DNA of 62,732 bases, filler included, from Coriobacteriales bacterium (GTDB taxonomy: Bacteria > Actinomycetota > Coriobacteriia > Coriobacteriales > UBA8131): the NCBI GenBank assembly GCA_031263105.1. It is 5 parts of 5 records of this genome, joined end to end, with 100 filler letters (N's around TTAATTAATTAA, not from the genome) between each part and the next. Parts side by side here need not be neighbours in the genome. Positions count along the whole stretch, not along the records: positions 26,635 to 53,917 come from JAISGJ010000211.1; 4 more parts are not named here. The stretch is one strand, 5' to 3'. Shown here piece after piece: positions 13,461 through 53,227 of the stretch. Within the stretch, counting starts at the first letter, position 1; every line of letters begins with the position of its first letter. A model generated the notes under the pieces. It searched no databases. It was not told where the DNA came from and saw nothing but the letters and a program-made list of their open reading frames with translations. The translations under genes and the position numbers were made by a program.

Positions 13461-13522
13461 GGAGCCGGGCCGAGCGCCGGCCGCTTTTCGCGCAGCAGGC
13501 GGCCCATCGACGCCGACGGGCC

Positions 13523-15936: not shown

Positions 15937-16123
15937 GCTGTGCTTCGCTGTGTCTGCCACCACGCTCATCTCCGTGACGGCTCTGTAAAAAGCACGTGCG
16001 GAGTGACCCTTCATGAAGTATTGTACGTTTTTTCTGTCTGTCCTACCATATGAGAACCAAAATGCCTTCCTCGTCCTGCTCGCAAAGGAATCTTAGCTTT
16101 GTCTATTAAGCCGTCCTGCCTGC

Positions 16124-16329: not shown

Positions 16330-16429
16330 NNNNNNNNNNNNNNNNNNNNNNNNNNNNNNNNNNNNNNNNNNNNTTAATTAATTAANNNNNNNNNNNNNNN
16401 NNNNNNNNNNNNNNNNNNNNNNNNNNNNN
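16330..16429. other. Artificial contig linker
   Basis: 100 nt of N with central TTAATTAATTAA (stops in six frames). Confidence 0.98.
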
Positions 16430-16493
16430 GGTCGGGGTGGCAGTGGGGGGTCGGGGTGGCAGTGGGGGGGGGGGGGGGGGGGTGGACGGTAAC
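16430..16493. repeat. Degenerate right end of the REP-like element
   Basis: GGGGTGGCAGTGGGGG units ending in GGTAAC; poly-G noise. Confidence 0.6.
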
Positions 16494-16509
16494 CGCCGAA
16501 GTTTTCAGC

Positions 16510-17049: not shown

Positions 17050-17131
17050 GGGTCTCTCCTTCTTAAGGCTCTTCCCCGCGTTTATCTGAGTGATAAATCA
17101 TACCAAATAAGACACAGCGTGACAGTTCCCA

Positions 17132-28631: not shown

Positions 28632-28633
28632 GC

Positions 28634-28931
28634 TTACCGTTCACACCCCCACCGTCATTCCGAGTCCCGCCGAGGAATCCTCGGCTGCGAAGCAGCCGAC
28701 TGTGGGCAGAGGCGCCCCCCAACCTGCTGTTGGCCGCTTCGCGTTCCGTGGGCCTGTCGGCCCGTTCTCGCTGAAAACAGACCCGTGGGTTCGCGCAGGC
28801 GCTTCACCCGTCCTTCGCTGACGGGGTGCCACCGGCACCCCGTCCGGGCGCTCGGACCCAAGGATTCCTCGGCTGCGGCGCAGCCTCCGGCAGCGTCTCC
28901 GCTCGGAATGACAGTAGGGTGCGAGCGGTAA
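28634..28931. repeat. REP-like element with a longer, different interior
   Basis: TTACCGTTCACACCCC...GTCATTCCGAG and CTCGGAATGACAGTAGGGTGCGAGCGGTAA ends. Confidence 0.85.
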
Positions 28932-28958
28932 CGGATTAAGGGCCATCGGATCCCCTGT

Positions 28959-29037
28959 ATCCCCCCAGTGCGGGGATACGCGTATGCCACAATCACCGCG
29001 TTGCGGTGATACCTTCTGCCCGGTTCTCCCGTAGTGT
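28959..29037 (+). promoter_or_regulatory. Two 6-7-6 palindromic boxes and the -10 of the flavoprotein gene
   Basis: ATCCCC-N7-GGGGAT (28959-28977), ATCACC-N7-GGTGAT (28992-29010), TAGTGT at 29032. Confidence 0.65.
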
Positions 29038-29086
29038 GAGGCGCAGCCTGCTCTTCGCAGGGACACTCGGGAAAGAAGGAGATCAT

Positions 29087-31051
29087 ATGAGCGAGAACAA
29101 CGGGAGCAACGGGAGCAACGAGCACCACGACATGCTGAGCCGCAGGAGGTTCCTCGTGGGAGCGGGCATCGGCGCGGCGGGCCTTGTGGGAGCGGGCGCG
29201 TTGGCGGCCTGTGCCCCTTCGGCCGCCGGGAGCAGCGACGGAGATGGCGGGGCAGCCGGCAATGAGGGGGCGGCCGGAGGCGCATCCGGCGGCGCTGCCC
29301 CGGCAGCCGGCGGCGGCGGCGTGAACGGGACCATCGGCGGCGCCATCTGCGCCGACGACTGGCTGGGGACGATGCCCGAGATCGCCGAGGCAGACGTCTC
29401 GGAGACCGTCGATGTCGACGTCGTCGTCCTCGGCAGCGGACATGCGGGGACACAGGCTGCGCTTGCGGCGGCCCAGGCAGGGGCCACGGTCGCAGTCGTG
29501 GAGAGGCAGTCGGAGGAGAAGTACGTCTACTTCGGCGACGACATCTGCGCGTACAACTCGCAATGGATAACCGAGAAGGGCTTCGGCGGCTACAACACGG
29601 GCGAGATCACCGCAGAATACGTCCGGCGCGGCATCGGGCGCGTGTCCCCGGACATCATCAGGCTGTTCGTCGAGAACTCGGGGGAGATGTTCGACAACCT
29701 CGTCTCCCTGATACCTGAGACCAGCGACCTGCTCGACTACGAGGGCGGCCGTTGCGTCATCCAGGTGGCCTATGGCAAGGACAAGGGCAGCGACTACCCC
29801 ATAGCGCAGTCCAGCTTCAAGTCCTGGGCGACGACCGTGCAGACCGCCGCCACCATCAACCCCACGGAAGTGATACCCGGGCGCAAGCTCACCCGTCTGA
29901 CCGAGATAGAGACCTATTCGATGTGGGAGGCCGAGAAACTGGGTGCCACGTGGTACTGGGGCTGCTCTGCCGAGGCGCTCGTCATGGACGGCGATGCCGT
30001 CACGGGTGCCTACGCGCTCAAGGAGGACGGCAGCTATCTGCGCCTGAATGCCGCCAAGGGCGTGCTGCTGGCAACCGGGGACTTCTCCGCCAACCCCGAC
30101 ATGGTCTGGAACCTCCTTGACGACGTTGCCGAGTGGGGGAGCCGCGTCGGGATCGAGAGGACGGGCCTGATCGGTCCCGGCCGCGACGGCATGGGCCACA
30201 AGCTCGGCTGCTGGGCAGGCGGGGCCATAGAGCCCCATCCGCGCTCCTCCATGAACATCATGGGCGGACAGCCCGGCCCTTGGGGCACATCGGCCTTCCT
30301 GACCCTCAACAAGGACGGCAGGCGCTTCATGAACGAGAGCATGGCCCAGCTTGCCGGTGCCGCCTGCCTGAGGCAGCCCTTGGGCATCATCGCCTCTGTC
30401 ATGGACGCCAACTTCATGAAGACGGTACAGGGCGCGGGCCTCGATCATGGCGCACCGAACTGGGGCTATCCTCCCATGCTGGAACAGATGGAAGAGGACA
30501 TGCGCAACCTCCAGCCGGGGCCGGACGGCGGGCCGGTCACCTCGTGCTCCATCGTCAGCCTGAACGAGATCAACACCCATGACCCGGAAGGCGAGGCGAG
30601 CGGGGAGAGCTCGATGCCGCCGAGCATCGTGTTCGCGGCCGACAGCATCGAGGAGCTGCTCGGCTACCTTGGCTACAGCGGTGCGGAGCTGGAGACCGCG
30701 CTCGCAGAGATCGAGCGCTACAACGAGCTGTGCAGCCAGGGCAAGGACACGGACTTCGACAAGCAGGCCGATCTGATGATCCCCCTCGAGCAGGCGCCCT
30801 TCTATGGTGCGGTCGCAGAGAACTCCGGCATGACGTCCCCCGGCCTCGTGACGCTTGCGGGCCTTCTCACCGACGCGAGCCTCAACGTCATGAAGGCCGA
30901 CCGCTCCGGCCCCATCAAGGGCCTCTATGCGACCGGCAACTGCCTGGGCCAGCGCTACGGCATGGGCTATGGCACGCCTTCTGCAGGCAACTCGATGGGC
31001 ATGGCCATGACCCACGGGCGCGTCGCAGGCAAGATAATCGCGGCGCAGTGA
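29087..31051 (+). CDS. Tat-exported lipoprotein FAD-dependent oxidoreductase (flavocytochrome c / FAD_binding_2 family)
   Basis: SRRRFL, LAAC lipobox, GSGHAG, LATGDF, GRRFMNE, GLYATGN. Confidence 0.92.
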   Translation: MSENNGSNGSNEHHDMLSRRRFLVGAGIGAAGLVGAGALAACAPSAAGSSDGDGGAAGNEGAAGGASGGAAPAAGGGGVNGTIGGAICADDWLGTMPEIAEADVSETVDVDVVVLGSGHAGTQAALAAAQAGATVAVVERQSEEKYVYFGDDICAYNSQWITEKGFGGYNTGEITAEYVRRGIGRVSPDIIRLFVENSGEMFDNLVSLIPETSDLLDYEGGRCVIQVAYGKDKGSDYPIAQSSFKSWATTVQTAATINPTEVIPGRKLTRLTEIETYSMWEAEKLGATWYWGCSAEALVMDGDAVTGAYALKEDGSYLRLNAAKGVLLATGDFSANPDMVWNLLDDVAEWGSRVGIERTGLIGPGRDGMGHKLGCWAGGAIEPHPRSSMNIMGGQPGPWGTSAFLTLNKDGRRFMNESMAQLAGAACLRQPLGIIASVMDANFMKTVQGAGLDHGAPNWGYPPMLEQMEEDMRNLQPGPDGGPVTSCSIVSLNEINTHDPEGEASGESSMPPSIVFAADSIEELLGYLGYSGAELETALAEIERYNELCSQGKDTDFDKQADLMIPLEQAPFYGAVAENSGMTSPGLVTLAGLLTDASLNVMKADRSGPIKGLYATGNCLGQRYGMGYGTPSAGNSMGMAMTHGRVAGKIIAAQ

Positions 31052-31116: not shown

Positions 31117-31683
31117 CTATTCCATCCACTCCTGCTTGACCGGTGAGATTTTCTGCCAATAGCTCAAAGTCCACTTGTTGAACAGATGGGCGAGCCGCGT
31201 CGGCTCGACATCCATCTTCCTCGTGAGCCAACGACTGATCAGGCTCGCATTCGCCGCAGAGAAGAAGAAGGCGGTGTACGCCTTCTCGTCGTCGGGCAGC
31301 TCGAAGTCCTTGAGCACCACGTCGTTCAGGGCGCTCAGCCGCTCGGTCAGAATGCGGACGAGCAGACTGCCGTGCTCGACGCGATTGATCCGCGAGTAGA
31401 ACCGCTCGTGATCTGCGATGCTCTGGTAGATGAGCTCCATCAGTATCTGCGGCGACGATTTTATCCGGAACGTGGGAATCGTCTCCAGCATCCGGTGCTG
31501 CGAGTCCACGACATCATCCTGAACGATGCTCGATAAGACGGTCTCCTTGTTCTGGAAACTATCATAAAACGACGCCCGGGAGACACCCGTCTCCTTGCAT
31601 ATCCGGGTAACGGAGATATCCTCGTAAGGGGTGGACAGAGCAAGCTCCCTGAAGCAGTTCTGGATACTTTGCCTGACAATCAT
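31117..31683 (-). CDS. TetR/AcrR-family regulator
   Basis: ISVTRICKETGVSRASFYDSFQNK HTH; GGAGGTG RBS; divergent from the Mo-enzyme operon. Confidence 0.9.
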   Translation of the reverse strand: MIVRQSIQNCFRELALSTPYEDISVTRICKETGVSRASFYDSFQNKETVLSSIVQDDVVDSQHRMLETIPTFRIKSSPQILMELIYQSIADHERFYSRINRVEHGSLLVRILTERLSALNDVVLKDFELPDDEKAYTAFFFSAANASLISRWLTRKMDVEPTRLAHLFNKWTLSYWQKISPVKQEWME

Positions 31684-31981
31684 AGGCCACCTCCGTAGAG
31701 CCTCCGTAGAGCCGTCTGCCCCGTCCTGCCCAATTATAGACCCAGCCCGCGCGTTCAACCACATGCGGGAGACGGCGGAACCGACAAAGTTCCTGCAAAA
31801 CCCCTGTTCTGCAAGGCATCCCCCTACAGAAGAGACGCTTTGTCTGGCCGACACCTGCAAAACAGCCGGTCAGTTGGAGAACTGCACTCAAAAGAGCGGT
31901 TTTGGCCTGTTGCTGGGCACGTAGCCGCAGGGTATCGTCGGACTATCGAGAACGACAAACAAAGAGCGAGAGGAGGCCCGG

Positions 31982-34651
31982 ATGAGCGAGCAGGTCGAGC
32001 AGGAAGGGCGGGAGCAGGCCCTTCGAGAGCAGGGCGTTCGGGAGCAGACCGTCATCAGGGGCATCGCCTGCGGAGGCACCGGCGGTGACGCGGTGGCGAT
32101 CGACTTCAAGGACGGGAGGATCGTCAGGTTCCGTCCGCTGCACTGGGACATGAGCTACCCATGGGACGACCTTCAAAAGGATCTCTGGGAGTTCGACATC
32201 GACGGCAAGGTGTTCAAGCCAGAGGTCAAGGCGGCCCCGAGCTACTTTGCGCTGGCGTACAAGAACCGCGTCTACTCCAAGAACCGCGTGCGCTACCCGC
32301 TGAAGCGCGTGGACTGGGAGCCGGGCGGGGACCCCGCCAAGACCAACGCCCAGAACCGTGGCATCAGCAAGTTCAAGCGCATCAGCTGGGACGAGGCCCT
32401 CGACATCATCGAGTCCGAGCTGCGCCGCATCATCGGGGACTACGGCCCCTTCGCCGTGCTCTGCATCGGCGAGAACGGCCACCGTGAGTCGAAGGACCTG
32501 CACTCCGGCGGCGGCATGCACGCCACGCTGATGAACGAGCTGGGCGGCTACACCCGCGAGACGCGCACGCCCGACAGCGTCGAAGGCTGGTACTGGGGGG
32601 CCAAGCACGTCTGGGGGCGAGGCTCCACCAACGGCCTCGGCCTGGCGGCGCCGATGGAGACCGGCTACAGCTCGTGGCTGGTCGCCTACGACCTCTGCGA
32701 GAGCTGCGACCTTATCGCCTTTCAGGCCGGCGACCTCGAGCTGACCCAGAACTACGCCGCGCAGGGCGTAAGCCGCCTGATCAAGTACTGGGAGGAGCTG
32801 GGCAAGGAGTTCGTCGTCATCGACCCGTTCTGCACCTATACGGCCGTCTGTCATGAGACGATGAAGTGGATACCCATCCTGCCGAACACGGACTCGGCGC
32901 TGGACTTCGCCCTGATGCACGTGTGGCTCACCGAGGGCCTGTACCAGAAGGACTACGTGGAGACCCACACGGTCCACTTCGACAGGCTCAGGGCCTATGT
33001 CCTCGGCGAGGAGGACGGCGAGCCCAAGACGCCGGAGTGGGCGTCCCCGCTCTGCGGCGTGCCCGAGTGGACCATCAAGGCACTGGCCCGCAAGTGGGGC
33101 ACGCAGCGCACGTCGCTGGCGCACTTCTCCAGCGGCTCGGTGAAAGGCCCCTACTCCCATGAGAACGGCCGCACCGCCGCCTACAAGATGGCGATGCAGG
33201 GCCTGGGCCGTCCCGGCGTGCAGCAGCTGCACATCAACGCCCTTGAGATGGCCAAGCCCATCATCGAGAACAGCACGGTGGGGCAGATGATCATGTGCAA
33301 CCGCTCCCGCATGTACGTGCCCACGGTGCAGTCCATCCCGCGCACCACGGTCGCCCATGCCATTCAGGACGGCGAAGTCACCTGGTGGGGCAGCCCCTCG
33401 ATCATCTGGGCCTCCACCGAGGACCAGTTCCAGGAGTACCGCTACCCTGCGCCCGCCGAGGCGGGCGGCACGCCCATCCGCATGATGTGGAGCGAGAAGC
33501 CCTGCAACATGGTCTGCTGGAACGGCGGCTTCAACTACCAGGACGCCATCCGCGACCCTCAGATCGAGTTCTTCCTCACCAATCACCAGTGGATGGAAAA
33601 CGACAGCCTCTTCTGCGACATGGTCCTGCCGGTGAGCACCTGCGTCGAGGAGAACGACGACGTGGGCGCCGGCATGGTGGTTCCCTTCAAGTACGTGGCC
33701 CTGAACAAGAGGGCCTGCGACCCCATCGGCGAGTCGATGAGCGACTACCAGATCGCCCTGGAGATCGGCAGGCGTTTCGGCGTGGACGAGAACATCTCGC
33801 TCGGCATGGACGAGGACGAGTGGTTCGAGTACGCCTTTGGCAACTCCCGGGTCAGCGAGGAGATCACCTGGGAGCAGTTCAAGGAGAAGAGCTACTACAT
33901 TCCCAAGATCGACCCGGACTGGAAGAAGCTGCCGCACGGCATGCAGAACTTCTATGAGGATCCGGAGGCCTATCCGCTGGACACGCCCACGGGGAAGATC
34001 GAGTTCTGGTCCGATGCGCTGGCAGAGCACTTCCCGAACGACAAGGAGCGTCAGCCGATGGCCCGCTGGATGATCGGCGGCCCGGCGGAAGAGGGCTGGA
34101 CGCACGACGAGACGCCCTTTGGCGAGAAGGCCAAGACTTATCCGCTGCTGCTGGTCTCCACCGCTGCGCGTTGGCGCGTGCATGTCCAGGGCGACGACAT
34201 CGCCTGGTTCCGCGAGATCGAGACCTGCAAGGTGCGCGGTTTCGACGGCTACGCCTACGAGCCTGTCTGGATGACTCCCGAGGACGCCGCCTCCCGTGGC
34301 ATCGCCGCCGGCGACATCGTCAAGGTGACAAACGACCAGGGGACGATTCTGTGCGGTGCCCGCATCTCAGGGCGCGTGACGCCTGGCTCCGTCATGGTCC
34401 ACAAGGGCGCACGGGTGGATCCCATAACGGACTGCCTGGATCGCGGCGGCGCCACCAACCTGATAAGCCCGCCACGTCGTATCTCCCAGCATTGCGTGGG
34501 CTTCGCGGTCACCAATTACCTGGTGGAGTGCTCCAAGCTGGAGCGGGCCGAGCTTGAGGAGTGGAAGCGGAACTATCCCGAGGCCTTTGCGCGGGACTAC
34601 GACCCGGCCATAGGCATCAACTACGCATCGTGGGTGGAAGGAGGCGAGTGA
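31982..34651 (+). CDS. Molybdo-bis-PGD (DMSO reductase family) catalytic subunit, pyrogallol transhydroxylase alpha (AthL)-like
   Basis: KDGRIVR, RVRYPLKR, RISWDEA, PDSVEGWYWGAKHVWG, TPTGKIEF, C-terminal molydop-binding domain; no Tat signal and no N-terminal Fe-S Cys motif. Confidence 0.9.
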   Translation: MSEQVEQEGREQALREQGVREQTVIRGIACGGTGGDAVAIDFKDGRIVRFRPLHWDMSYPWDDLQKDLWEFDIDGKVFKPEVKAAPSYFALAYKNRVYSKNRVRYPLKRVDWEPGGDPAKTNAQNRGISKFKRISWDEALDIIESELRRIIGDYGPFAVLCIGENGHRESKDLHSGGGMHATLMNELGGYTRETRTPDSVEGWYWGAKHVWGRGSTNGLGLAAPMETGYSSWLVAYDLCESCDLIAFQAGDLELTQNYAAQGVSRLIKYWEELGKEFVVIDPFCTYTAVCHETMKWIPILPNTDSALDFALMHVWLTEGLYQKDYVETHTVHFDRLRAYVLGEEDGEPKTPEWASPLCGVPEWTIKALARKWGTQRTSLAHFSSGSVKGPYSHENGRTAAYKMAMQGLGRPGVQQLHINALEMAKPIIENSTVGQMIMCNRSRMYVPTVQSIPRTTVAHAIQDGEVTWWGSPSIIWASTEDQFQEYRYPAPAEAGGTPIRMMWSEKPCNMVCWNGGFNYQDAIRDPQIEFFLTNHQWMENDSLFCDMVLPVSTCVEENDDVGAGMVVPFKYVALNKRACDPIGESMSDYQIALEIGRRFGVDENISLGMDEDEWFEYAFGNSRVSEEITWEQFKEKSYYIPKIDPDWKKLPHGMQNFYEDPEAYPLDTPTGKIEFWSDALAEHFPNDKERQPMARWMIGGPAEEGWTHDETPFGEKAKTYPLLLVSTAARWRVHVQGDDIAWFREIETCKVRGFDGYAYEPVWMTPEDAASRGIAAGDIVKVTNDQGTILCGARISGRVTPGSVMVHKGARVDPITDCLDRGGATNLISPPRRISQHCVGFAVTNYLVECSKLERAELEEWKRNYPEAFARDYDPAIGINYASWVEGGE

Positions 34652-34652
34652 G

Positions 34653-35456
34653 ATGGCAAAGGTGTTCGTTATCGATTACAGGAGCTGTGTCGGCTGCCAT
34701 GACTGCCAAATCGGCTGCAAGGACGAGCACTGCGGCAACGAGTGGGCCCCCTATGCCAGGGCGCAGCCCTTCGTCGGGCAGTTCTGGATGAAGGTCGACC
34801 AGCAGGAGCGCGGCAGACGGCCGCACATCAAGGTCACCCATCTGCCCACGCTCTGCCAGCACTGCGACGACGCGCCCTGCATCAAGGCTGCGCCGGACGC
34901 CGTCTACAAGCGCGACGACGGCCTGGTGATAATCGATCCCAAGAAGGCCGTCGGCAACGAGAGGCTGGCCAGGTCCTGCCCGTATGGCGCCATCTTTTGG
35001 AACGAGGAACTCAGGCTTCCGCAGAAGTGCACCGGTTGCGCCCATCTGCTCGACGGCGGCCACACCATCGACGTCCCGCGCTGTGTGGACAACTGCCATG
35101 TCAACGTCATTCAGTTCGGCGAGGAGGGCGACTTCGACCTCTCTGACTGCGAGGTCATGCACCCCGAGTACGGTACCAGCCCGCGCGTCTACTACAGAGG
35201 CGGGCTGCCCCGGAAGTTCGTGGCCGGCACCGTCTACGACCCTGTGGCGAAAGAGGTGCACGTCGGCGCCACGGTGGCGCTTGTCGGCGAGGCCGGTGCC
35301 TTTACGGCCGTCACTGACGACTGGGGCGACTTCTGGCTGCGCGATCTGCCCGACGCGGACTTCACGCTCACCATCGAGGCCGACGGCAAGGCAAAGACCT
35401 TGGAGGTCAGCACCAGGAAGGAGGACGTCGGTCTCGGCGACATCGCCCTTACCTGA
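34653..35456 (+). CDS. Poly-[4Fe-4S] subunit, transhydroxylase beta (BthL)-like
   Basis: CVGCHDCQIGCKDEH, CQHCDDAPC, CPYG, KCTGCAHLLD, PRC, PRVYY, C-terminal beta-sandwich (TDDWGDF). Confidence 0.9.
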   Translation: MAKVFVIDYRSCVGCHDCQIGCKDEHCGNEWAPYARAQPFVGQFWMKVDQQERGRRPHIKVTHLPTLCQHCDDAPCIKAAPDAVYKRDDGLVIIDPKKAVGNERLARSCPYGAIFWNEELRLPQKCTGCAHLLDGGHTIDVPRCVDNCHVNVIQFGEEGDFDLSDCEVMHPEYGTSPRVYYRGGLPRKFVAGTVYDPVAKEVHVGATVALVGEAGAFTAVTDDWGDFWLRDLPDADFTLTIEADGKAKTLEVSTRKEDVGLGDIALT

Positions 35457-35563
35457 CGCTGCGGCGGTCGCAGCTCACGGAGGCGGCGCATACGGACAGC
35501 GCATACAGACAGGGAGGGACGGTGCCGCGACCGCTCCTCCTCGGACCCCGAGGAGAGTCACCC

Positions 35564-35962
35564 ATGTGTTTCAGGCCAGCGGAGATACAGATGAACACGT
35601 GCCCGTCGTGCGGCAAGGTGAACAAGCCGATTGCCAAGATGTGCGCCGAGTGCGGAGCGGAGCTGCAGAGACAGACGAATGTCGTCTGCCCGATCTGCGG
35701 GTTCCAGAATCCGCCGACGGCCAAGGAGTGCGGTCAATGCGGTGCCACAGAGGCGCAGATCGTGGCAGCCATGGGCACTGCGCCCCGTGCCCCCAAGGCA
35801 CCGGGGATGCCCGCCGCCCCGCCGCGCCCGCCCGCCCCGCCTGCGCCCGGCATCCCCCGTTCGCCCGCCGCCCCGCCCGCGCCCGGAACGCCGCCCCGCC
35901 CACCCGCTGCGCCGCCCAGCATCCCCCGTCCGCCAGACAACGTTCAAAGGAGAACACCATGA
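35564..35962 (+). CDS. Double zinc-ribbon protein with Pro/Ala-rich tail
   Basis: MCFRP start, four CxxC pairs, GAGGAG RBS; ATGA overlap with the SDR. Confidence 0.8.
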   Translation: MCFRPAEIQMNTCPSCGKVNKPIAKMCAECGAELQRQTNVVCPICGFQNPPTAKECGQCGATEAQIVAAMGTAPRAPKAPGMPAAPPRPPAPPAPGIPRSPAAPPAPGTPPRPPAAPPSIPRPPDNVQRRTP

Positions 35963-36723
35963 GGCTCGGTAAACTCTCGTGCGAAGGCACGGTCGCCCTT
36001 GTCGCCGGGGCGAGCTCGGGCATCGGCAAGTCGTCGGCCCTGCTGCTGGCGCAGGCAGGCGCACAGGTCTTCCTCGTCGCCCGTCGGGCCGAGAAACTCG
36101 AAGAGCTCAAAGCTGCAATCGAGGCCGCAGGCGGCGCTGCGGACTGCTTTGCCGCCGATGTCTCGGAAGAGAGCAACTGCAAGGCTGCCGTCGAGGCCTG
36201 CGTCGAGCGCTTCGGCAGCGTGGACGTCCTCGTAAACAGCGTCGGCATGAACTCCGGCCGCATCGAGGACGCCTTCGACACCGAGAACTACCACAAGGTC
36301 ATCAAGGTTGACCTCGATGCGACGGTGTTCATGGTCAAGTACGCCTACCCGCTGATGAGCGATGCGGGCGGCGGCTCTATCATCAACATCTCGTCCAGTG
36401 CCGGCGTCAAGGCGATGGTCGACTCCGGCATCCCGTACACCGCGTCGAAGGGCGCCATTCGCAGTCTCAGCCGCATGTGGGGCAAGCAGTTCGCTCCGGC
36501 GCAGGTGCGCGTCAACAGCATCTACCCGGGATACATCCTCACGGAGATGACCACAGGCGCCTTCGACAACCCGGAGATCATGCCGTACTTCACCAAGGAC
36601 GTGCCCATGGGCACGATAGGCGAGGCGGACGACATCGGCTACTGCGTGCTCTATCTGGCCTCGTCGGCATCGAAGTACGTCACCGGTCAGGACTTCATCA
36701 TAGACGGCGGCATGACCTGCTGA
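35959..36723 (+). CDS. Short-chain dehydrogenase/reductase
   Basis: GASSGIG, NISS, YTASK, VRVNSIYPG, VTGQDFIIDGG. Confidence 0.93.
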   Translation: MRLGKLSCEGTVALVAGASSGIGKSSALLLAQAGAQVFLVARRAEKLEELKAAIEAAGGAADCFAADVSEESNCKAAVEACVERFGSVDVLVNSVGMNSGRIEDAFDTENYHKVIKVDLDATVFMVKYAYPLMSDAGGGSIINISSSAGVKAMVDSGIPYTASKGAIRSLSRMWGKQFAPAQVRVNSIYPGYILTEMTTGAFDNPEIMPYFTKDVPMGTIGEADDIGYCVLYLASSASKYVTGQDFIIDGGMTC

Positions 36724-36799
36724 AGGTGCAAGGCTTTGGGCACGAACCCGCACGGTAGCGGGCCACCTATACAAGCGTTTCGTTGAAAGGAGCACTGCC

Positions 36800-37666
36800 A
36801 TGGCCGAGAAAGAACCGAGTTTGATGCCCTTCGCTGTAGGCAAGATCACCGTTGCGACCTTGCAGAAGATGAAGGACGAGGGCACGCTGATAACGATGGT
36901 CGGCACGGGCCCCTGCGACGCCCTCTGGGTCCTGGCCTGTGAGCGCGCGGGCGTCGAGCTTGTCCGTTACGTCGCCTTTGGCGAGAACTGCGAGGACCGG
37001 GCGCGCAACCTCCACGCGCAGACGCGCGAGATCAGGAAGCTCGCTCCGATGATCTGCCTCAACGCGGTGATGAGCGACTGGACCTACGCGGACAAGTACC
37101 ACGCCACCGAGGTCGCCACCAAGCTGATGATGGACGGTGCCGACTGCGTGCTGCCGATGGGCGTGACCAACGAGACGCTGAAGTATATGTCCGACCGCTG
37201 CATTCCCGTGTTCGGCCATGTGGGCTGCCTCTCCGGCTGGCAGGCCAAGGCCTACGGCGGCTACAAGCGCATCGGCAAGACGGCCAGCGAGGCCATGGAC
37301 GTCTTCCGCATGGCCTACGAGTATCAAGAGAATGGCATGGTGGGCATGACCATCGAGATGACCTCGCGGGAGGTCACCGAGGCCATCGCCAAGAAGCTGC
37401 GCGTCCCCGTGATCGCAGTTGCCGCCGGCGGGGCGGCCGACGGCTCGGAGATGGTCATCTATGACCTGCTCGGCTTCCAGCCGGTGTCCACGATGGCCAA
37501 GCACTCCAAGCACTATCGCACCTATCTCGAGGATTCCATCGCGGCCTTCAAGGAGTTCGACACGGACATCAAGACACGCGCCTATCCCCAAAAGGAGCAC
37601 GGCTGGAGCATGGACGAGCGCGAGCTTGAGAAGTTCCTCACCGATCTGGACAACACCTACAAGTAA
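36800..37666 (+). CDS. Divergent PanB (ketopantoate hydroxymethyltransferase)-like protein
   Basis: ITVATLQKMK, IPVFGHVG, GGYKRIGK, IEM, VPVI, DGSEMVIYDLLG, YPQKEH; lacks GDS. Confidence 0.85.
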   Translation: MAEKEPSLMPFAVGKITVATLQKMKDEGTLITMVGTGPCDALWVLACERAGVELVRYVAFGENCEDRARNLHAQTREIRKLAPMICLNAVMSDWTYADKYHATEVATKLMMDGADCVLPMGVTNETLKYMSDRCIPVFGHVGCLSGWQAKAYGGYKRIGKTASEAMDVFRMAYEYQENGMVGMTIEMTSREVTEAIAKKLRVPVIAVAAGGAADGSEMVIYDLLGFQPVSTMAKHSKHYRTYLEDSIAAFKEFDTDIKTRAYPQKEHGWSMDERELEKFLTDLDNTYK

Positions 37667-37752
37667 TCAGCGGACAGCCGTCTTCCCGTCAGAACGGCAG
37701 GGCGATGCCGGACGGGAAGACGGCCGCTGACTCGAACAGGGAGGTACAAGCG

Positions 37753-39036
37753 ATGGACGCTTCTGTGAATAAGAGCATGAGGTTCAAGGCGAACAAGGCC
37801 TACTTCGGCAGTCTGATCATGGCCGCTTTCTGCCTGGGGTCCTATATCACGTTCTCCAACTACTGGAATCCTCTGGCTGCCAAGCTGGGCGTTTCCCTCG
37901 GACAGATTTCCATAATCATCAGCATAGCCAGTCTGACCAGTGTCATCACCGCCCTGGTCTTGGGGGCGCTGCTCAAGAGAATCAAGATCCGGCTGCTTGT
38001 CAGCATCGCTGCTGTGATCATCATCGCCTTCTTCGTTGCGATATCCCTTGCCACCGACATCATCGCGCTGTATATCATGGCCATACCCTTTGGATTTGCG
38101 ACGGTGGCAGCGGGTTTCCCAGGTGCTCAGGTGATAATGGCCTGGTGGTTCAAAAAGGGCCTTGGCAAGCGGATGAGTTTTCTGGCTATCGGACTGGCGC
38201 TCGTGATCATGACCCTGAGCCCCACGCTGGCAGCATCCATCGAGGCCTACTCTGTGAGTCAGGTGGCGCTGGTGCACGGGCTGGTGGCAGGTGGCGTGAT
38301 TCTGCTCTGCGCGATATTCCTGCTTGCCGAGAAGCCGAGTGAGTACGGTTATGAGGTGCCTGACGAGAAGCCCAAGCAGGTAAGCGAGGCCGAGGCAGGG
38401 CAGATCGAGCATACGGCGGACAAGACCCTCACCGTCAAGGAGATCCTGCGCACCAAGCCGTTCTGGATGATCCTGATCGGCATCTTCGTGGCCTGTATCG
38501 CCACCACGGGGCTGGGCAACAACTCAGCCCCGTTCTTCGAGTCGCTGAACCTCAGCCCCGTCGAGGCAGGAATCTGCGTTGGCGCCTTGGGCATCGCCAC
38601 CTTGGTCTGGGGACCGGTCTTCGGTGTCCTTCTTGATAAGTTCGGGGTGTCCAAGGCCACGACGATGCAGGGAGGCCTGCTCACCGTCGTCTTCTTCGCG
38701 GCCGCCTTTGTGGCAGGGCTCGGCTTCATCCCCGCCCTGATCATTGCCGTCATGCTGGACGCATCGGCTTTCACCGGGAACCTCGGAGCCGTGGCCTATA
38801 CAAAGATCTACGGGCAAAAGGAATCCGCTTCGCTCATCGGCTTTGCCTCGACGGCCTCTGCTTCTGCGGCGATGGTGGGCACCCCTCTGGCAGCGTTCAT
38901 ATTCACCGCCACCAACTCCTACATGATGTTCATGTTCTTCTCCGGAATCCTGGTGGCGGTCTGCGTGGTGCTGGTGATACTCGCTACCCGCATCAGGATA
39001 GTCAAGCCCGAGTCAACACCTGGACAGGAGGGATAG
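37753..39036 (+). CDS. MFS transporter
   Basis: 12 hydrophobic segments, WFKKGLG, LLDKFG; GGGAGG RBS. Confidence 0.9.
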   Translation: MDASVNKSMRFKANKAYFGSLIMAAFCLGSYITFSNYWNPLAAKLGVSLGQISIIISIASLTSVITALVLGALLKRIKIRLLVSIAAVIIIAFFVAISLATDIIALYIMAIPFGFATVAAGFPGAQVIMAWWFKKGLGKRMSFLAIGLALVIMTLSPTLAASIEAYSVSQVALVHGLVAGGVILLCAIFLLAEKPSEYGYEVPDEKPKQVSEAEAGQIEHTADKTLTVKEILRTKPFWMILIGIFVACIATTGLGNNSAPFFESLNLSPVEAGICVGALGIATLVWGPVFGVLLDKFGVSKATTMQGGLLTVVFFAAAFVAGLGFIPALIIAVMLDASAFTGNLGAVAYTKIYGQKESASLIGFASTASASAAMVGTPLAAFIFTATNSYMMFMFFSGILVAVCVVLVILATRIRIVKPESTPGQEG

Positions 39037-39037
39037 G

Positions 39038-39904
39038 ATGTATTCGTTTCACGAGGGTTACCAACGGGCGCTCGGCATCGACGAGACCGGCGTTCCCGGA
39101 ATGTCGAGGGGCACGAACAACGACCCGTCCATGAGCGAGATCCTGAATCTGACCGGCAAGGTCGCCATCGTCACAGGCGGGGCAATGGGCCTGGGGTTCT
39201 GCGTCGTTAACCGCCTGTGCGAGGCAGGGGCCCGTGTGGTTATCGCCGATGTGGCCGACGAGTATGCCGAGAGGGCCTTGGGCTACTTCGGCGACAAGGG
39301 CTATGTCGTTAGGTTCGTAAAGGCAGACGTGACCGACGTCGCCCAGGTCAAGGCCGCCGTGGACTTCACGGTCAAGGAGTTCGGTGCGGTCGACATCCTC
39401 GTCACCGATGCCGGGGTCTGGGCCCATGCGCTGCTCTCGGAGATCACCGAGGAGACCTTCTATGAGATGATCGACATCAACCTGAAGGGCACCCTGTTCT
39501 TCATCCAGGCTGTGGCAGACGCGATGGAGAGGCAGGAGACAGGCGGCCGCATCGTCACCGTCGCCTCGGTCGCAGGCCTTTCCGCCGATCAGGCTCCCAT
39601 CATGTTCGAGTATGTCGCGTCCAAATCGGCGGTCGTCGCCCTGACGAAGTCTCTGGCAAAGGGCCTCAAGCACAAGGGCATTCGCATCAACTGCGTCCTG
39701 CCCGGCGGCATGCTGACGCCCGGTGCGATGACCACGCATGGCACAGAGGCCGCCAAGGAGCTCCGCGAGTCCACTAGGTCGCCCCTTGCCGACCCCGACG
39801 ATGTCGCCCGTGTGATATTCATGCTGTCCACGCCTATCAGCGACTTCATGTACGGCGCGACCCTTTCCGTCGACGGCGGGGCCTTCCTGGGCATCGAGGA
39901 GTGA
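39038..39904 (+). CDS. Short-chain dehydrogenase/reductase with N-terminal extension
   Basis: TGGAMGLG, ADVTD, YVASK, IRINCVLPG, VDGG. Confidence 0.93.
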   Translation: MYSFHEGYQRALGIDETGVPGMSRGTNNDPSMSEILNLTGKVAIVTGGAMGLGFCVVNRLCEAGARVVIADVADEYAERALGYFGDKGYVVRFVKADVTDVAQVKAAVDFTVKEFGAVDILVTDAGVWAHALLSEITEETFYEMIDINLKGTLFFIQAVADAMERQETGGRIVTVASVAGLSADQAPIMFEYVASKSAVVALTKSLAKGLKHKGIRINCVLPGGMLTPGAMTTHGTEAAKELRESTRSPLADPDDVARVIFMLSTPISDFMYGATLSVDGGAFLGIEE

Positions 39905-39946
39905 CGGATGTTCGTTGGCGGCAATTGGTTTTGAAAGGAAGAGGAC

Positions 39947-41620
39947 ATGGCCCACCCATCGGACATCGAGATAGCGCAGTCGGCTGCCCCCCGGCCCATC
40001 GCGGAGGTCGCCGGGGAGCTGGGGATAGGGCCGGGGCACCTTGAGCCCTACGGCCGCTACAAGGCCAAGGTCGGGCTCGGCGTCCTGGACGACGGCCCCG
40101 CTCCTGACGGGAAGCTCATCCTGGTCACCGCCATGACCCCCACGCCCGCCGGCGAGGGCAAGACCACCACGACCGTCGGGTTCGCGGACGCGCTCTCGCG
40201 CCTCGGCAGGCGCCCCGTCGTCGCCCTGCGCGAGCCCTCGCTCGGCCCCGTGTTCGGCGTCAAGGGGGGCGCGGCGGGCGGCGGCTACGCCCAGGTGGTC
40301 CCCATGGAGGACATCAACCTTCACTTCACGGGCGACCTCCACGCCGTAGGCGCGGCCAACAACCTCCTGGCGGCCATGCTCGACAACCACATCCACCAGG
40401 GCAACGCGCTGGGCGTCGACGCCCGCAGCATAACCTGGCGGCGCTGCGTGGACATGAACGACCGGCAGCTGCGGAGCGTCGTGGACGGTCTCGGCGGGTG
40501 CGCGAACGGCACGCCGCGCGAGGACGGTTTCGATATCACGGTGGCGTCGGAGGTCATGGCGGTGCTCTGCCTGGCGGGGTCGCCCGCCGACCTCAGGGAG
40601 CGGCTGGCGCGCGTCGTCGTGGCCTACGACCGCGCGGGTGCGCCCGTCACCGCGGGCGACCTCAAGGCGGCGGGCGCGATGGCGGCGCTGCTGAAGGACG
40701 CCCTGAGCCCCAACCTCGTGCAGACGCTGGAAGGGACCCCCGCCCTCGTCCACGGCGGCCCGTTCGCCAACATCGCCCACGGCTGCAACTCCGTCACGGC
40801 CACGCGCATGGCGCTGTCCCTGGGCGACTACGCGGTGACCGAGGCGGGCTTCGGGGCCGACCTCGGCGCGGAGAAGTTCCTGGACATCAAGTGCCGCATG
40901 GCGGGGCTTGTGCCCGACGCGGTCGTCGTGGTCGCCACCGTGCGGGCGCTCAAGCACCACGGCGGCGTGCGCAGGGAGGACTTGGGGGCCGAGGATCTCG
41001 ACGCGCTGAAAAAGGGCCTGCCCAACCTGCTGCGGCACGTGGAGAACATCACCGAGGTCTACGGGCTGCCCTGCGCGGTCGCCGTCAATCAGTTCCCCAC
41101 CGACACGCCCGCCGAGCTGAGGCTTGTGGAGGACAGGTGCCGTGAGCTGGACGTCAGCGTCGCCCGGTCCGAGGTCTGGGCAAAGGGCGGCGAGGGCGGC
41201 CTGGCGCTCGCGGAGGAGGTGGTGCGCCTCGCGGGTCAGCAAAGCGACTTTACGTTCAGCTATCCGGACTGGCTTTCGATAGAAGAGAAGCTGCATACGA
41301 TCGCAACAAGGATATACCGCGCAGACGGCATCGACCTGACGCCGCAGGCGAAGGAGCAGGCAAAGACGCTGGAAGAGCTGGGCTTCGGCGGCCTGCCGGT
41401 CTGCGTCGCCAAGACCCAGTACTCCTTCTCCGACGACCCCGCCCTGCTCGGCGCCCCCACAGGCTTCCGCGTCACCGTGCGCAACCTGAAGGTATCGGCG
41501 GGCGCGGGCTTCATCGTGGCCTTGACCGGCGACGTCATGACGATGCCGGGGCTCCCGAAGGCCCCCGCCGCCGAGAGGATCGACGTGGACGCCTCCGGCA
41601 GGATAAACGGGCTGTTCTGA
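39947..41620 (+). CDS. fhs: Formate--tetrahydrofolate ligase
   Basis: [49 protein letters not shown]. Confidence 0.98.
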
Positions 41621-41695
41621 TGGGCGCGGCGCCTACAGAACGCCCTTGTGAAGAGCGACATCGGGTTTTCTTGAACGTTGTGAGGAGGTCTTCAC

Positions 41696-42544
41696 ATGGC
41701 GCGGACACTCAAGGGCACCGAGGTCGCCGAAGCACTGAACAGTGAGACGATCAAGGAGGTCGAGGCACTGAAGGCAGGAGGCGTCGAGCCGACGCTCGCC
41801 ATCCTGCGTGTCGGCGAGCGCGCAGACGACGTCTCCTACGAGAGGGGTGTGGCGAGACGGGCCGAGAAGGTCGGCGTAGCTGTCAGGAACATCGTGCTTC
41901 CTGCCGATGCCGGACAAGACGCATTGACCAAGGCCATCGAAGCCCTCAACGCCGACAGCTCCGTGCACGGCGTCCTCATGTTTCGGCCGCTGCCGCCGTC
42001 CCTCGACGAGGGTGTCGCCCGCAACGCGCTCGACCCAGCCAAGGACGTGGACGGCATCACCGATGCGTCGCTTGCCGGCGTCTTTGCCGGTGCGAATACC
42101 GGATATGCCCCCTGCACACCGAGCGCCTGCATGGAGCTGCTTGACCACTACGGCATCGACCCTGCGGGCAGGAGCGTCGTCGTCGTGGGGCGCAGCCTCG
42201 TGGTCGGCAAGCCGGTGGCCATGATGCTGCTCGGTCGCAACGCCACAGTCACTGTCTGCCACTCCCGGACGAAGGAGCTTTTCTCAGTCGTGCGAGAAGC
42301 CGACATCGTTATCGCCTGTGTGGGATGCGCTCATCTGCTTGGTACAGATCACCTTGCCCCCGGCCAGATCGTCATCGATGTGGGGATCAACGTCGCAGAC
42401 GATGGGACGCTTGTCGGCGACGTTGACTTTGAGGCCGCACGAGGCGTCGTTGATGCCCTTACCCCCGTACCTGGCGGTGTAGGCACGGTGACGACCAGTG
42501 TGCTTGTCAAGCATGTCGTCGAGGCGGCCATGCGGCAGACGTAA
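41696..42544 (+). CDS. folD: Methylene-THF dehydrogenase (FolD family)
   Basis: KDVDG, PCT, GRSLVVGKP, DVGIN, GDVDF, PVPGGVG. Confidence 0.95.
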   Translation: MARTLKGTEVAEALNSETIKEVEALKAGGVEPTLAILRVGERADDVSYERGVARRAEKVGVAVRNIVLPADAGQDALTKAIEALNADSSVHGVLMFRPLPPSLDEGVARNALDPAKDVDGITDASLAGVFAGANTGYAPCTPSACMELLDHYGIDPAGRSVVVVGRSLVVGKPVAMMLLGRNATVTVCHSRTKELFSVVREADIVIACVGCAHLLGTDHLAPGQIVIDVGINVADDGTLVGDVDFEAARGVVDALTPVPGGVGTVTTSVLVKHVVEAAMRQT

Positions 42545-44682: not shown

Positions 44683-44921
44683 CTCAACAAAAGACCTCGT
44701 AATAGCGCCTGTTTATTATTTCTTGTCAAATTTTATCATTCTTTATCATTTCTGGTCAAAGCGCGGCAATGTCCGTTGCCTCGAACGCCCGCCTCTCTGG
44801 TAAGGGGATGCGCTCAGGCGTCCGTGCAGGCGGGAACGTGTACAATAGGCCTATCAGCCGATTTTGAGGAGATGTTTAAGATTCGCAACCCCACTATCGT
44901 TCGTAAGGTGGTGCAGTGCCT

Positions 44922-46052
44922 ATGGAACTCCCCGATTTCAAGGTAACCGAAGAAATCGAAGGGCTTGCGCTTGAGATCGTCGAGATCTTGGAAGTGATGG
45001 AGAGGGTCGGCGACATCGACACCTTGTTCAAGTTGAGAAGGGCCGGTCGCATAAGCTCCATCCAGTCTTCGGTGGCGATAGAGGCCAATTCTTTGACCCT
45101 TGAGCAGGTCACCGACATCGTCAACGGCAGGAAGGTCATCGGGGATCCGAAGGAGATACAAGAGGTAAAGAACGCCTGGGAGGCCTACGAGGGCATCGGC
45201 GAGTATGATCCCTACTCACGGGACAGTTTTCTTGAGGCCCATAAGAGGATGTCGAGCAAGCTGGTACGGGAAGCCGGAAGGTTCAGGAGCGTGCAGGTCG
45301 GCGTCTACAAGGGCTTTGAGCTGATACACGACGGTGCCAGGCCGGAAGAGATCGAGCGGCTCATGGACATCGTTTTTGAGTGGGGCCTGAAGTCGAACGC
45401 CCACCCCCTCATCAAGAGCTGTGTCATGCATTTCCTCATCGAGTTCGTGCATCCTTTCGAGGACGGCAACGGACGGATGGGCAGGCTCTGGCAGACCGTC
45501 ATACTCGCTGACTGGAAGCCGATCCTCCAGTGGGTGCCCGTAGAGACGATGGTCTATCAGAACCAATATGGATACTATCAGGCCCTGCATACGTCGGAGG
45601 AGGCAGGCGACGCAGGGCCCTTCGTGGTGTTCATGCTCGATATCATCGCGTACACCCTTGGCGTGATCGTGAGGAGCAAGGCGCTGCCGCAGCGCAGGGT
45701 CGGCGAGACGGTGTCCATTCCCTATCTCCCGGACTTCTCGGGATTTCCCGACAACCGCAAGGGGCATATCGACGAAACGGGCAGCATTCCCGATAGGGCG
45801 GGCGCTCTTACCGATAAAATTCCCGATATATTTACCGATAAGCTGACCAAGGGAGAAAAGGAGTTCCTGTCTGCCATCTATCTGTACCTCTGCGAGCATG
45901 GGGAGATCAACAACTATCGGGCGCAGACGCTGACAGGCAAGTCGGCCGACAGCGCGAAGAAGTATCTTGCGAAGCTGGTGAGCGCAGGCCTTCTCCAGGC
46001 CGTCGGCAACAACAAGGCGAGGGTATACCGCTTCGCAGACTTCACGACGTAA
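44922..46052 (+). CDS. Fic-domain protein with C-terminal wHTH
   Basis: SSVAIEAN, intact HPFEDGNGRMGR motif, tetrapeptide-repeat linker, GNNKARVY. Confidence 0.93.
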   Translation: MELPDFKVTEEIEGLALEIVEILEVMERVGDIDTLFKLRRAGRISSIQSSVAIEANSLTLEQVTDIVNGRKVIGDPKEIQEVKNAWEAYEGIGEYDPYSRDSFLEAHKRMSSKLVREAGRFRSVQVGVYKGFELIHDGARPEEIERLMDIVFEWGLKSNAHPLIKSCVMHFLIEFVHPFEDGNGRMGRLWQTVILADWKPILQWVPVETMVYQNQYGYYQALHTSEEAGDAGPFVVFMLDIIAYTLGVIVRSKALPQRRVGETVSIPYLPDFSGFPDNRKGHIDETGSIPDRAGALTDKIPDIFTDKLTKGEKEFLSAIYLYLCEHGEINNYRAQTLTGKSADSAKKYLAKLVSAGLLQAVGNNKARVYRFADFTT

Positions 46053-50259: not shown

Positions 50260-50342
50260 GTGTGGCTCTCTTTCTTCCCGGTTTGTTTGCACTCCTGCTT
50301 TCGCACGGAGTGTGCGTGCTCTCTGCCCTGCAGGGCATCTAC

Positions 50343-50438
50343 AGGATAGAGGCAAAGGAAGCCCGCATCCTCACGTGTTTCCGGGTATTGTGTCTTGTGT
50401 GCGGGTGGATTGGGCACAAATACCCGATAATGGGTGAG
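50343..50438 (-). promoter_or_regulatory. Two 6-7-6 boxes and the -10 of the second flavoprotein gene
   Basis: CTCACG-N7-GGGTAT (50370-50388), ATACCC-N7-GGTGAG (50420-50438), minus-strand TATCCT at 50348. Confidence 0.6.
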
Positions 50439-50472
50439 GAGAGGGCAGCCGCAGCATGCGAGCATGTACGTG

Positions 50473-50520
50473 AAGAGAGGGTCCAAGAGAGGGCCCAAGA
50501 GAGGGTTCAAGAGAGGGCAC
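50473..50520 (+). repeat. 4 x 12-bp tandem AAGAGAGGGNNC just upstream of the LuxR start
   Basis: Direct reading. Confidence 0.9.
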
Positions 50521-50527
50521 GTCACAC

Positions 50528-53065: not shown

Positions 53066-53227
53066 CCTCGTTATCCCTTCCCTCATCCTCGGGCATCCGG
53101 ATCCCGGTGCTCCCTGTCGTCGAGCAGCGGGTTTTCAACCATACATCATGCGCTTCTTCCGCACTCGCCTGTGCGCGGCACAGGCGAGTGGCGCCTCGAA
53201 TGCCGACCCCTCCATTATAACGGTAGC

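Follow-up and report, generated by a model that had tools for sequence, protein, structure and literature searches.

A candidate mosaic catabolic operon combining a transhydroxylase-type molybdoenzyme, a PanB-like protein and duplicated folate genes in a Coriobacteriales bacterium

Introduction

The pantothenate enzyme PanB (EC 2.1.2.11) carries out a reversible, tetrahydrofolate (THF)-dependent transfer of a hydroxymethyl group next to a carbonyl. Other described systems that invite comparison with the locus presented here are the LigM/DesA enzymes of Sphingobium sp. SYK-6, encoded with metF and ligH, through which aromatic catabolism reportedly hands a one-carbon (C1) unit to THF with folate-interconversion genes of its own; the fermentations of purine- and glycine-degrading clostridia, in which formyl-THF synthetase is reversed for ATP; and AthL/BthL, the two-subunit molybdenum (Mo) enzyme of Pelobacter acidigallici (Protein Data Bank (PDB) entry 4v4c). 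In the present study we analyzed a window (the whole 62,732-nucleotide stretch of DNA, consisting of several contigs of a metagenome-assembled genome (MAG) joined together, with 352 N) from an uncultured, termite-gut Coriobacteriales bacterium (GCA_031263105.1). At 31117-42544 it carries a TetR gene divergent from nine co-directional genes, which encode an AthL/BthL-type Mo enzyme, a zinc-ribbon protein, two short-chain dehydrogenases (SDR1 and SDR2), a PanB-like protein, a major facilitator superfamily (MFS) transporter, formate--tetrahydrofolate ligase (Fhs) and FolD. An earlier note on this DNA had read the array as one catabolic operon coupling the Mo enzyme to folate C1 capture. We assign a probability of roughly 0.45, somewhat below even, to the whole account of a TetR-controlled mosaic catabolic operon in which a C1 unit is stripped onto THF and converted to formate and ATP, and consider it probable that the block comprising the PanB-like protein, SDR, Fhs and FolD has, taken alone, a role in C1 stripping.

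Neither the PanB-like module nor an AthL-like enzyme in Coriobacteriia was found to be described in the full-text literature searched, outside of which most subscription journals lie. In passages of one relevant study, transhydroxylase appears only as an outgroup to the catechol dehydroxylases (PMC7028382). The individual parts are of known kinds; what would be new is that a PanB-type enzyme serves catabolism and is paired with folate genes of its own, joined at this locus by a transhydroxylase-type enzyme.

The PanB-like protein and its relatives

The PanB-like TIM-barrel enzyme encoded at 36800-37666 (+) matches Pfam family PF02548 with 137.4 bits across profile positions 1-258 of 259. With its AF2 model (pLDDT 81.9) as query, Foldseek ranks 1-24 as listed against the PDB are all PanB (best E 4.2e-15), and these model-based matches are followed by 2-methylisocitrate lyase, dimethylmalate lyase and related lyases; all sequence-based PDB matches are likewise PanB. 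Together with the fold and the Pfam family, the protein has in common with PanB the equivalents of His136 and Glu181, which are retained in every row of a MAFFT alignment of 16 PanB-like and five canonical sequences; H140 and E186 are invariant in 38 members of the PanB-like family. Conversely, its identity to canonical PanB is about 25-30%, and its scores fall below the cut-offs of the panB models (TIGR00222, 89.0 bits versus 207.55; NF001452, 100.9 versus 272). The GDS (Asp45/Ser46), ADMPF (Asp84) and VKLEGG (Lys112/Glu114) motifs were also confined to the canonical set of the alignment, such that GDS, D84 and K-x-E are absent from the PanB-like sequences. We take these residues to be the Mg2+- and ketopantoate-binding positions of PanB, with roles reportedly assigned in the structure paper on the E. 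coli enzyme. At E<=1e-30, 536 clusters were retrieved with the protein, and every name attached to them is PanB except for one “hypothetical protein”. Within the host family, a Coriobacteriia family for which our collection contains 34 draft genomes, each in 20 to 300 contigs, the PanB-like protein was found in only three; its nearest relatives occur in Clostridia and Treponema MAGs, and an 89%-identical protein was found on a 3-kb contig.

Since PF02548 is represented by a single gene found in the host genome (2.9 Mb, 250 contigs, 86% complete), an unorthodox pantoate route was considered, in which the PanB-like protein would act as the hydroxymethyltransferase, an SDR could serve as ketopantoate reductase, and the folate genes would supply methylene-THF. 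Apart from the sub-threshold scores and missing Mg2+/substrate residues noted above, such a route is opposed by the absence of any match to panC (PF02569) in this 86% complete genome, and no panC, panD or panE is found in the window. Furthermore, a true panB scoring above the equivalog cut-off coexists with the PanB-like gene in four of five isolate genomes, several loci hold multiple PanB-like paralogues, and the surrounding genes include transporters, LuxR- and TetR-type regulators and formate channels. We regard a pantoate role as highly improbable, and the proposal of the earlier note that this is not a pantothenate gene is upheld: unlike PanB, the protein is encoded by a paralogue occurring beside true panB, in a catabolic setting of regulators, transporters, SDRs and chaperone-like genes.

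Gene neighborhoods of the PanB-like family

A genome scan restricted to one genome per species identified 69 loci, comprising 58 PanB-like loci (42-67% identity) and 11 canonical panB loci (~30%), with the former distributed among Acetobacterium, Blautia and other Lachnospiraceae, Sedimentibacter, Christensenellaceae, termite Treponema, Chloroflexota, Desulfosarcina and others. Neighbors were counted from tblastn searches with representative queries (E<=1e-15, at least half of the query covered); many PanB-like loci are short, which makes the counts minimum values, and related genomes do not provide independent observations. At least one of Fhs, FolD, FchA, the formate channel FocA, GcvT-like or FolC genes was detected at 14 of the 58 PanB-like loci, compared to none of the 11 canonical panB loci. 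Fhs was found within 10 kb at 12 of the 58, FolD at eight, FocA at seven, FchA at six, a GcvT-like gene at four and FolC at three. Also identified were SDR2-like dehydrogenases (50/58), LuxR-type regulators (46/58), trigger-factor C-domain proteins (25/58), Cpn60 paralogues (24/58), SDR-like proteins with an insertion (12/58), VOC proteins (7/58) and zinc-dependent alcohol dehydrogenases (Zn-ADH; 5/58). Among metagenome contigs, we identified a further 47 PanB-like loci (15 of them at least 10 kb long), with Fhs and FolD occurring together in five and FchA in five.

Three arrays serve as examples of this organization: L060 combines a Cpn60 gene with genes for an SDR, two SDR-like proteins, Trigger_C, PanB-like, Fhs, FchA, FolD, FocA and FolC/5-formyl-THF (5-FTHF) cyclo-ligase; L016 comprises SDR-like, Zn-ADH, Fhs, FolD, FocA and PanB-like genes; and L021 comprises LuxR, SDR, PanB-like, MFS, Fhs and FchA. 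Acetogen loci (Acetobacterium, Blautia) mostly lack adjacent folate genes, which fits hosts already running a high-flux folate pathway, whereas other lineages carry them. A survey of this kind had been put forward with the earlier note, and it revealed a recurrent association of PanB-like genes with those of folate and formate metabolism in other anaerobes, seen at 14 of the 58 genome loci (none of the 11 canonical panB loci) and, for Fhs with FolD, at five of the 47 metagenome loci.

The two genes that follow the PanB-like locus in the window also have counterparts in this family of neighborhoods. SDR2 (39038-39904, +; adh_short) is of the SDR type found at most PanB-like loci, with identity up to 62% (L050), and homologues of the MFS transporter (37705-39036, +; MFS_1) with 32-35% identity lie beside PanB-like genes at L024, L050 and L052. 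The transporter is distantly similar to lactate, oxalate:formate and bile-salt carriers, with NCBIfam matches to SfMCT (95.6 bits) and to the OFA family that are all below cut-off; we propose from these similarities that it may be a substrate importer and/or formate exchanger.

Taken together, these findings lead us to propose that the PanB-like protein may be a THF-dependent hydroxymethyl (C1) transferase operating in catabolism, with its use of THF suggested by the neighboring folate genes. Alternatively, it might work without THF, as an isocitrate-lyase/PEP-mutase superfamily lyase or hydrolase with a keto compound as substrate, the folate genes serving another enzyme or being present by chance. 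The loss of canonical metal and substrate residues would be compatible with such an activity, as would the lyases that follow PanB among the model-based structural neighbors, the 44 of 58 loci without a nearby folate or formate gene, and the presence of THF-using GcvT-like or LigM-like genes in some of the same neighborhoods. However, Fhs occurs within 10 kb at 12 of 58 loci against none of 11 for canonical panB, GcvT-like genes occur at four loci only, such that most folate-linked loci hold no other THF-using candidate, and the leading structural matches as well as all sequence-based PDB matches are to PanB itself. We consider a THF-independent lyase improbable.

Several further features of PanB-like neighborhoods were noted. 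A protein consisting solely of the trigger-factor C-terminal domain is encoded just 5' of the PanB-like gene, for example at L032 (6318-10813), L036 (6428-10822) and L060 (4351-10825), and more than one PanB-like paralogue is present at L019, L020, L023 and L041. At L041 (7242-14553), from a Desulfosarcina MAG, two such paralogues lie beside a glycyl-radical enzyme and its activase. In the Bacillota MAG locus L016 (11100-14728, -), a three-subunit Mo enzyme of the xanthine dehydrogenase family (2Fe-2S, FAD and MoCo subunits) adjoins the PanB-like, FocA, FolD and Fhs genes, placing a different Mo enzyme family in an equivalent position. Open reading frames (ORFs) of 400-520 residues without a Pfam match were also found beside PanB-like or GcvT-like genes at L019 (3285-4553), L038 (7016-8239), L020 (7399-8748), L023 (8475-10022) and L065 (5476-8792). 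Fic/DOC domains are encoded within a few kb of PanB-like genes in the window (44916-46052) as well as at the Clostridiaceae MAG locus L017 (893-1654), which is probably a coincidence.

Duplicated folate genes

The two folate loci at the 3' end of the array are Fhs (39947-41620, +), which scores 890.9 bits against NF010030 (cut-off 652) and 874 bits against PF01268, and FolD (41696-42544, +), a bifunctional methylene-THF dehydrogenase/methenyl-THF cyclohydrolase with both the THF_DHG_CYH (PF00763, 103.7 bits) and THF_DHG_CYH_C (PF02882, 187.1 bits) domains, albeit with no NCBIfam FolD model matched above its own cut-off (best 262.5 versus 411). Had these been the sole copies in the genome, a housekeeping role would have sufficed, as the earlier note recognized. 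We found instead that both are second copies, with a core fhs-fchA-folD set located on contig C24 beside MTHFR, RACo and 5-FTHF cyclo-ligase. The operon and C24 copies share 83% identity for Fhs and 63% for FolD, and a quick maximum-likelihood analysis of 36 Fhs sequences recovered the host copies as sisters (SH-aLRT 98), with a branch length of 0.27 for the operon copy versus 0.11 for that of C24. Fhs sequences linked to PanB-like genes in other phyla were placed elsewhere in this tree. Judged from this phylogeny, the operon fhs arose from the core gene by a duplication specific to this lineage. Among the 34 host-family genomes fhs occurs in 31, and two full-length copies on separate contigs are found only in the host (G000) and in G007; G006, G014, G017 and G032 each yielded two fhs matches, at least one of them partial. 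The PanB-like block was probably acquired, with the native fhs-folD pair duplicated and placed behind it, and such a pattern is that expected of selection for a dedicated C1 outlet. Third-position GC content (GC3) ranges from 0.76-0.93 across all operon genes, with no clear break that would mark a recent transfer.

AcsB/CdhC was not found in the host genome, which makes acetogenesis unlikely and formate the likely fate of C1 units; the FocA gene of the host lies on another contig. A serine hydroxymethyltransferase gene in the window (60031-61350) is not linked to the operon, as it belongs to a different contig. Within fhs, at 40228-41075, the summed contig depth in sequencing run X1 rises to 75-77 compared to ~24 elsewhere and contigs fragment, probably reflecting the conserved paralogue together with fhs of other organisms.

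Closer inspection of the second fhs-fchA-folD array of G007 (L146, G007:C44:36000-54000, about 5900-17100) revealed a parallel organization. There, a Crp-type regulator is divergent from genes encoding a LigM-like protein, an MFS transporter, a molybdopterin oxidoreductase, an Fe-S subunit, Fhs, FchA, FolD and GTP cyclohydrolase I. The LigM homologue matches PDB entry 5x1i (E 5.5e-50); LigM is the THF-dependent vanillate/3-O-methylgallate O-demethylase, an enzyme known to act on lignin-derived aromatics. The molybdopterin oxidoreductase of G007 is only 25% identical to the Mo alpha subunit of the window. Considered with the window, this array suggests that the host family has repeatedly assembled operons in which a Mo enzyme and an enzyme that captures C1 units on THF are accompanied by dedicated folate genes. 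The resemblance to the SYK-6 system lies in aromatic catabolism delivering C1 to THF with its own folate-interconversion genes, whereas the window, from a strict anaerobe, encodes a PanB-like C1 enzyme in place of a GcvT-like one, and the unit transferred would be a hydroxymethyl group entering as methylene-THF instead of a methyl ether entering as methyl-THF. Similarly, the predicted conversion of methenyl-/formyl-THF to formate and ATP by Fhs, along with the formate channels and FchA of related clusters, is shared with the purine- and glycine-fermenting clostridia; the C1 source would differ, being a PanB-like enzyme rather than formiminoglycine or glycine.

The molybdoenzyme module

The alpha subunit of the Mo enzyme (31982-34651, +; Molybdopterin and Molydop_binding domains) has as its best solved relative the large subunit of pyrogallol hydroxytransferase, AthL (4v4c_A; E 1.6e-95, 324 bits, over stretches 31-414 and 442-854), with TMAO reductase as the runner-up PDB match (E 2.4e-60). 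The adjoining beta subunit (34653-35456, +), comprising ferredoxin-like Fe-S domains and a C-terminal beta-barrel domain (Fer4_11 and CarboxypepD_reg), aligns with BthL (4v4c_B; E 1.5e-55) over residues 5-264 on 6-272 of 274. Its assignment in the earlier note as an AthL/BthL-type pair is thus supported for both subunits, which share with the P. acidigallici enzyme a near full-length alignment, the beta barrel and, in alpha, the lack of a Tat signal and of an N-terminal Fe-S motif. A PDS motif in alpha aligns with P173-D174-S175 of AthL, such that equivalents of Ser175 and Asp174 are retained. In contrast, overall identity is low, Tyr152 and Arg153 of AthL are replaced by Ser and Gly, and His144 is matched by Gly, the next position being His. 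We take Ser175 to be the Mo ligand and His144, Tyr152 and Arg153 to bind pyrogallol, roles reportedly described by Messerschmidt et al. in 2004. The substrate of the Mo enzyme probably differs from pyrogallol; by homology, it may move, add or remove a hydroxyl group on an aromatic, probably polyphenolic, ring. Residues 28-147 of alpha, read along with residues 1-27, contain a single Cys and neither a Cys cluster nor a twin-arginine motif; the subunit thus lacks an N-terminal Fe-S motif and is predicted to be cytoplasmic.

Downstream of beta lies a double zinc-ribbon gene (35564-35962, +; DZR and Zn_Ribbon_1), a further difference from the AthL/BthL system. Its most likely start is the ATG at 35564, its product has a Pro/Ala-rich tail, and it runs into SDR1 through an ATGA overlap; it is possibly an accessory protein of the Mo enzyme. 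The phloroglucinol reductase, DPGC and TAL genes do not occur beside the Mo genes of the window. A role of the PanB-like protein as the phloroglucinol ring-opening enzyme was considered and rejected, as DPGC and TAL belong to other families and neither is encoded in the window. In passages of the source, DPGC is a member of a cyclase family and TAL of a beta-keto-acid cleavage family (PMC10470551).

The host genome encodes dozens of molybdopterin oxidoreductase paralogues, with 76 stretches matching the alpha subunit. Across 401 Coriobacteriia genomes, alpha matches at E<=1e-120 were restricted to 12, six of which carry a 62-68% identical alpha, and 13-18 kb were retrieved around each of these six orthologous loci (L107-L112). 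A BthL-like beta gene adjoins alpha in all six. Directly 5' of the Mo genes, a TetR gene of the TetR_C_8 type is present at L107, L108, L109 and L111, while TetR was detected by tblastn matches only at L110 and not at all at L112. The zinc-ribbon gene follows beta in at least L107 and L112, where a VOC/glyoxalase-like gene comes next, and L112 further includes MFS, Zn-ADH and SDR-like (with insertion) genes.

Operon structure and coupling of the two modules

ORF calls together with Pfam and NCBIfam searches recovered all ten genes at the positions given in the earlier note, with TetR (31117-31860, -; TetR_N and TetR_C_8) divergent from the nine co-directional genes. These are separated, in order, by 1, 107, -4, 76, 38, 1, 42 and 75 bases; all nine start with ATG, and a purine-rich GGAG/GAGG-type stretch precedes each except the MFS gene. 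Neither terminator-like sites (6 versus 5.8 in shuffles) nor promoter-like sites (2 versus 1.6) were in excess. The helix-turn-helix of TetR begins at residue 72, and its true start may lie 3' of the listed TTG; no inverted repeat of at least 8 bases that could form its operator was found within 31780-32020. The operon lies entirely within one contig, C162 (window 26635-53917). A 4848-base contig from a different assembler and a termite-gut DNA run is identical to 35321-40168 with zero differences, and because it bridges the junctions from the Fe-S beta gene to the start of fhs, these are not an artefact of one assembler. This run contains 96% of sampled words from the stretch. It is probably the sample of origin, and backs the assembly without constituting independent biology.

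Comparison of the two kinds of loci indicates that, by gene content, the operon is a mosaic, each of its two modules being found without the other in other genomes. The coupled reading of the earlier note stands as regards gene content, the AthL/BthL type of the enzyme, the distinction from panB and the additional fhs-folD pair; the coupling between Mo and PanB-like genes that it implied is not conserved elsewhere. Joint action of the modules is suggested by the single divergent regulator, the operon-like packing, the partners shared between locus kinds and one locus of the host family, L051, where 3.5 kb separate a PanB-like gene from a paralogous AthL-like pair (41-44% identity). Common to both locus kinds, at identities of 30-53% overall, are SDR1-type proteins, a 490-residue MFS protein (37-39%), an SDR-like protein with an insertion (30-35%) and a VOC protein (31%). 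SDR1 itself (35959-36723, +; classical adh_short), located between the modules, is 45% identical to an SDR at the orthologous Mo locus L111 and 44% identical to one at the PanB-like locus L020.

A number of observations weigh against the coupled, C1-stripping account. L051 is the only one of the 58 genome loci at which a Mo alpha/beta pair accompanies the PanB-like gene, and even there the two are separated by a LuxR gene and by an MFS gene on the other strand. Mo genes were found at none of the 47 metagenome PanB-like loci, the long ones among which are at most 66% identical, and no PanB-like, fhs or folD gene was found in the 13-18 kb around any of the six orthologous Mo loci. The partners shared by both locus kinds belong to large families and are of moderate similarity (30-53%), and folate genes occur at a minority of PanB-like loci. 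In addition, the missing metal ligands of the PanB-like protein could mean a different chemistry, the Ser and Gly at the Tyr152 and Arg153 positions remove presumed pyrogallol-binding residues from alpha, none of the RNA runs among those listed carries the stretch, and the substrate class, for which the earlier note had suggested a polyphenol with a formyl or hydroxymethyl group or a related ring, is a chemical argument rather than a finding. The Mo coupling is lineage-specific and unproven; the family-wide signal for the PanB-like protein is solid.

These results raise the alternative of two unrelated catabolic units lying side by side, with the TetR-governed AthL-like enzyme, zinc ribbon and SDR1 forming one, and the PanB-like, MFS, SDR2, fhs and folD genes forming another that would take a non-aromatic hydroxymethyl compound, any co-transcription being without pathway meaning. 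The independent occurrence of the modules (Mo loci without C1 genes in six of six; PanB-like loci without Mo genes in 57 of 58 and 47 of 47) is in keeping with this alternative, as is the contig, a patchwork of xenobiotic-type genes including pairs of LuxR-type regulators and flavoprotein reductases. Yet the array has a single divergent regulator, its gaps range from -4 to 107 bases and terminator-like sites are not in excess, SDR1 lies between the modules and has homologues at both locus kinds, and both L051 and the G007 array show that the host family repeatedly places Mo enzymes beside THF-dependent C1 enzymes. We consider the modules unlikely to be unrelated, although this is the likeliest of the alternatives.

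Elsewhere on C162, two pairs of a LuxR-type regulator and an FAD_binding_2 flavoprotein reductase were identified (27027-31051 and 48514-52087), a pairing typical of Coriobacteriia xenobiotic reductases. A single ORF at 52139-53086 (-) fuses an isochorismatase domain to a rifampin ADP-ribosyltransferase (Arr-ms) domain.

A possible pathway

Under the coupled, C1-stripping account, the MFS carrier would import a compound in which an SDR oxidizes a secondary alcohol to a carbonyl adjacent to the carbon bearing a CH2OH group, giving a beta-hydroxy carbonyl. The PanB-like protein could then catalyze a THF-dependent retro-aldol reaction, the reverse of that of PanB, yielding 5,10-methylene-THF, which FolD would oxidize to 10-formyl-THF and from which Fhs, operating backwards, would release formate and ATP. 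The formate may be exported to feed hydrogen- and formate-consuming gut partners. Either before or after C1 removal, the AthL-like enzyme might modify the ring hydroxylation of this substrate, which is probably aromatic. As the NCBIfam and PDB relatives of both SDRs are generic, their substrate cannot be inferred from these matches. The VOC genes of related loci would fit racemization at the position adjoining the carbonyl, as carried out by the dihydrodaidzein racemase of equol-forming bacteria, and racemic substrates of the lignin type could account for there being several SDRs at a locus.

Given that the reactions of PanB, FolD and Fhs are all reversible, C1 flow might also run in the opposite direction, with Fhs and FolD making methylene-THF from formate, the PanB-like protein hydroxymethylating an enolizable ketone and an SDR reducing the product, for the purposes of substrate activation or elongation, or formate disposal. 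The FocA channels of other clusters are bidirectional, many of the hosts are acetogens with a high methylene-THF flux, and the logic of PanB plus a reductase is mirrored by the pairing of PanB-like and SDR genes at 50 of 58 loci. Such a direction would, however, spend ATP on formate activation with no obvious pay-off in a fermenting gut bacterium in whose genome AcsB was not found. LuxR and TetR regulators along with importers suggest an external substrate, and clusters of non-acetogens possess a full oxidative set and a formate channel. We judge this reverse flow to be distinctly unlikely.

A bolder version of the C1-stripping account would have all nine genes constitute one novel pathway for the anaerobic removal of a carbon-bound C1 unit from a lignin- or polyphenol-derived compound, with conservation of energy. 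Here, the AthL-like enzyme would introduce or relocate a hydroxyl group; at its boldest, the proposal has it convert an activated C-methyl to a hydroxymethyl group or shift ring hydroxyls to give a keto tautomer. With the carbonyl put in place by the SDRs, the PanB-like protein would pass the hydroxymethyl carbon to THF, and the duplicated FolD and Fhs would yield formate and one ATP per C1. We view this version as speculative and rather doubtful.

Implications

If the PanB-like protein were a THF-dependent, C1-releasing enzyme, hundreds of genes annotated as PanB would be mislabelled in acetogens, gut Lachnospiraceae, termite-gut spirochaetes, Chloroflexota and Coriobacteriia. The family would then represent an overlooked and widespread carbon-carbon-cleaving route by which carbon-bound hydroxymethyl groups enter the folate pool of anaerobes, with acetogens using the carbon for acetogenesis and other lineages obtaining formate and ATP from it. 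This proposal lends itself to direct testing: the genes are few, their products are soluble, and the formation of methylene-THF coupled to FolD provides a simple read-out. For the termite gut, such an activity would bear on the oxygen-free trimming of lignin-derived and polyphenolic material and on formate cross-feeding.

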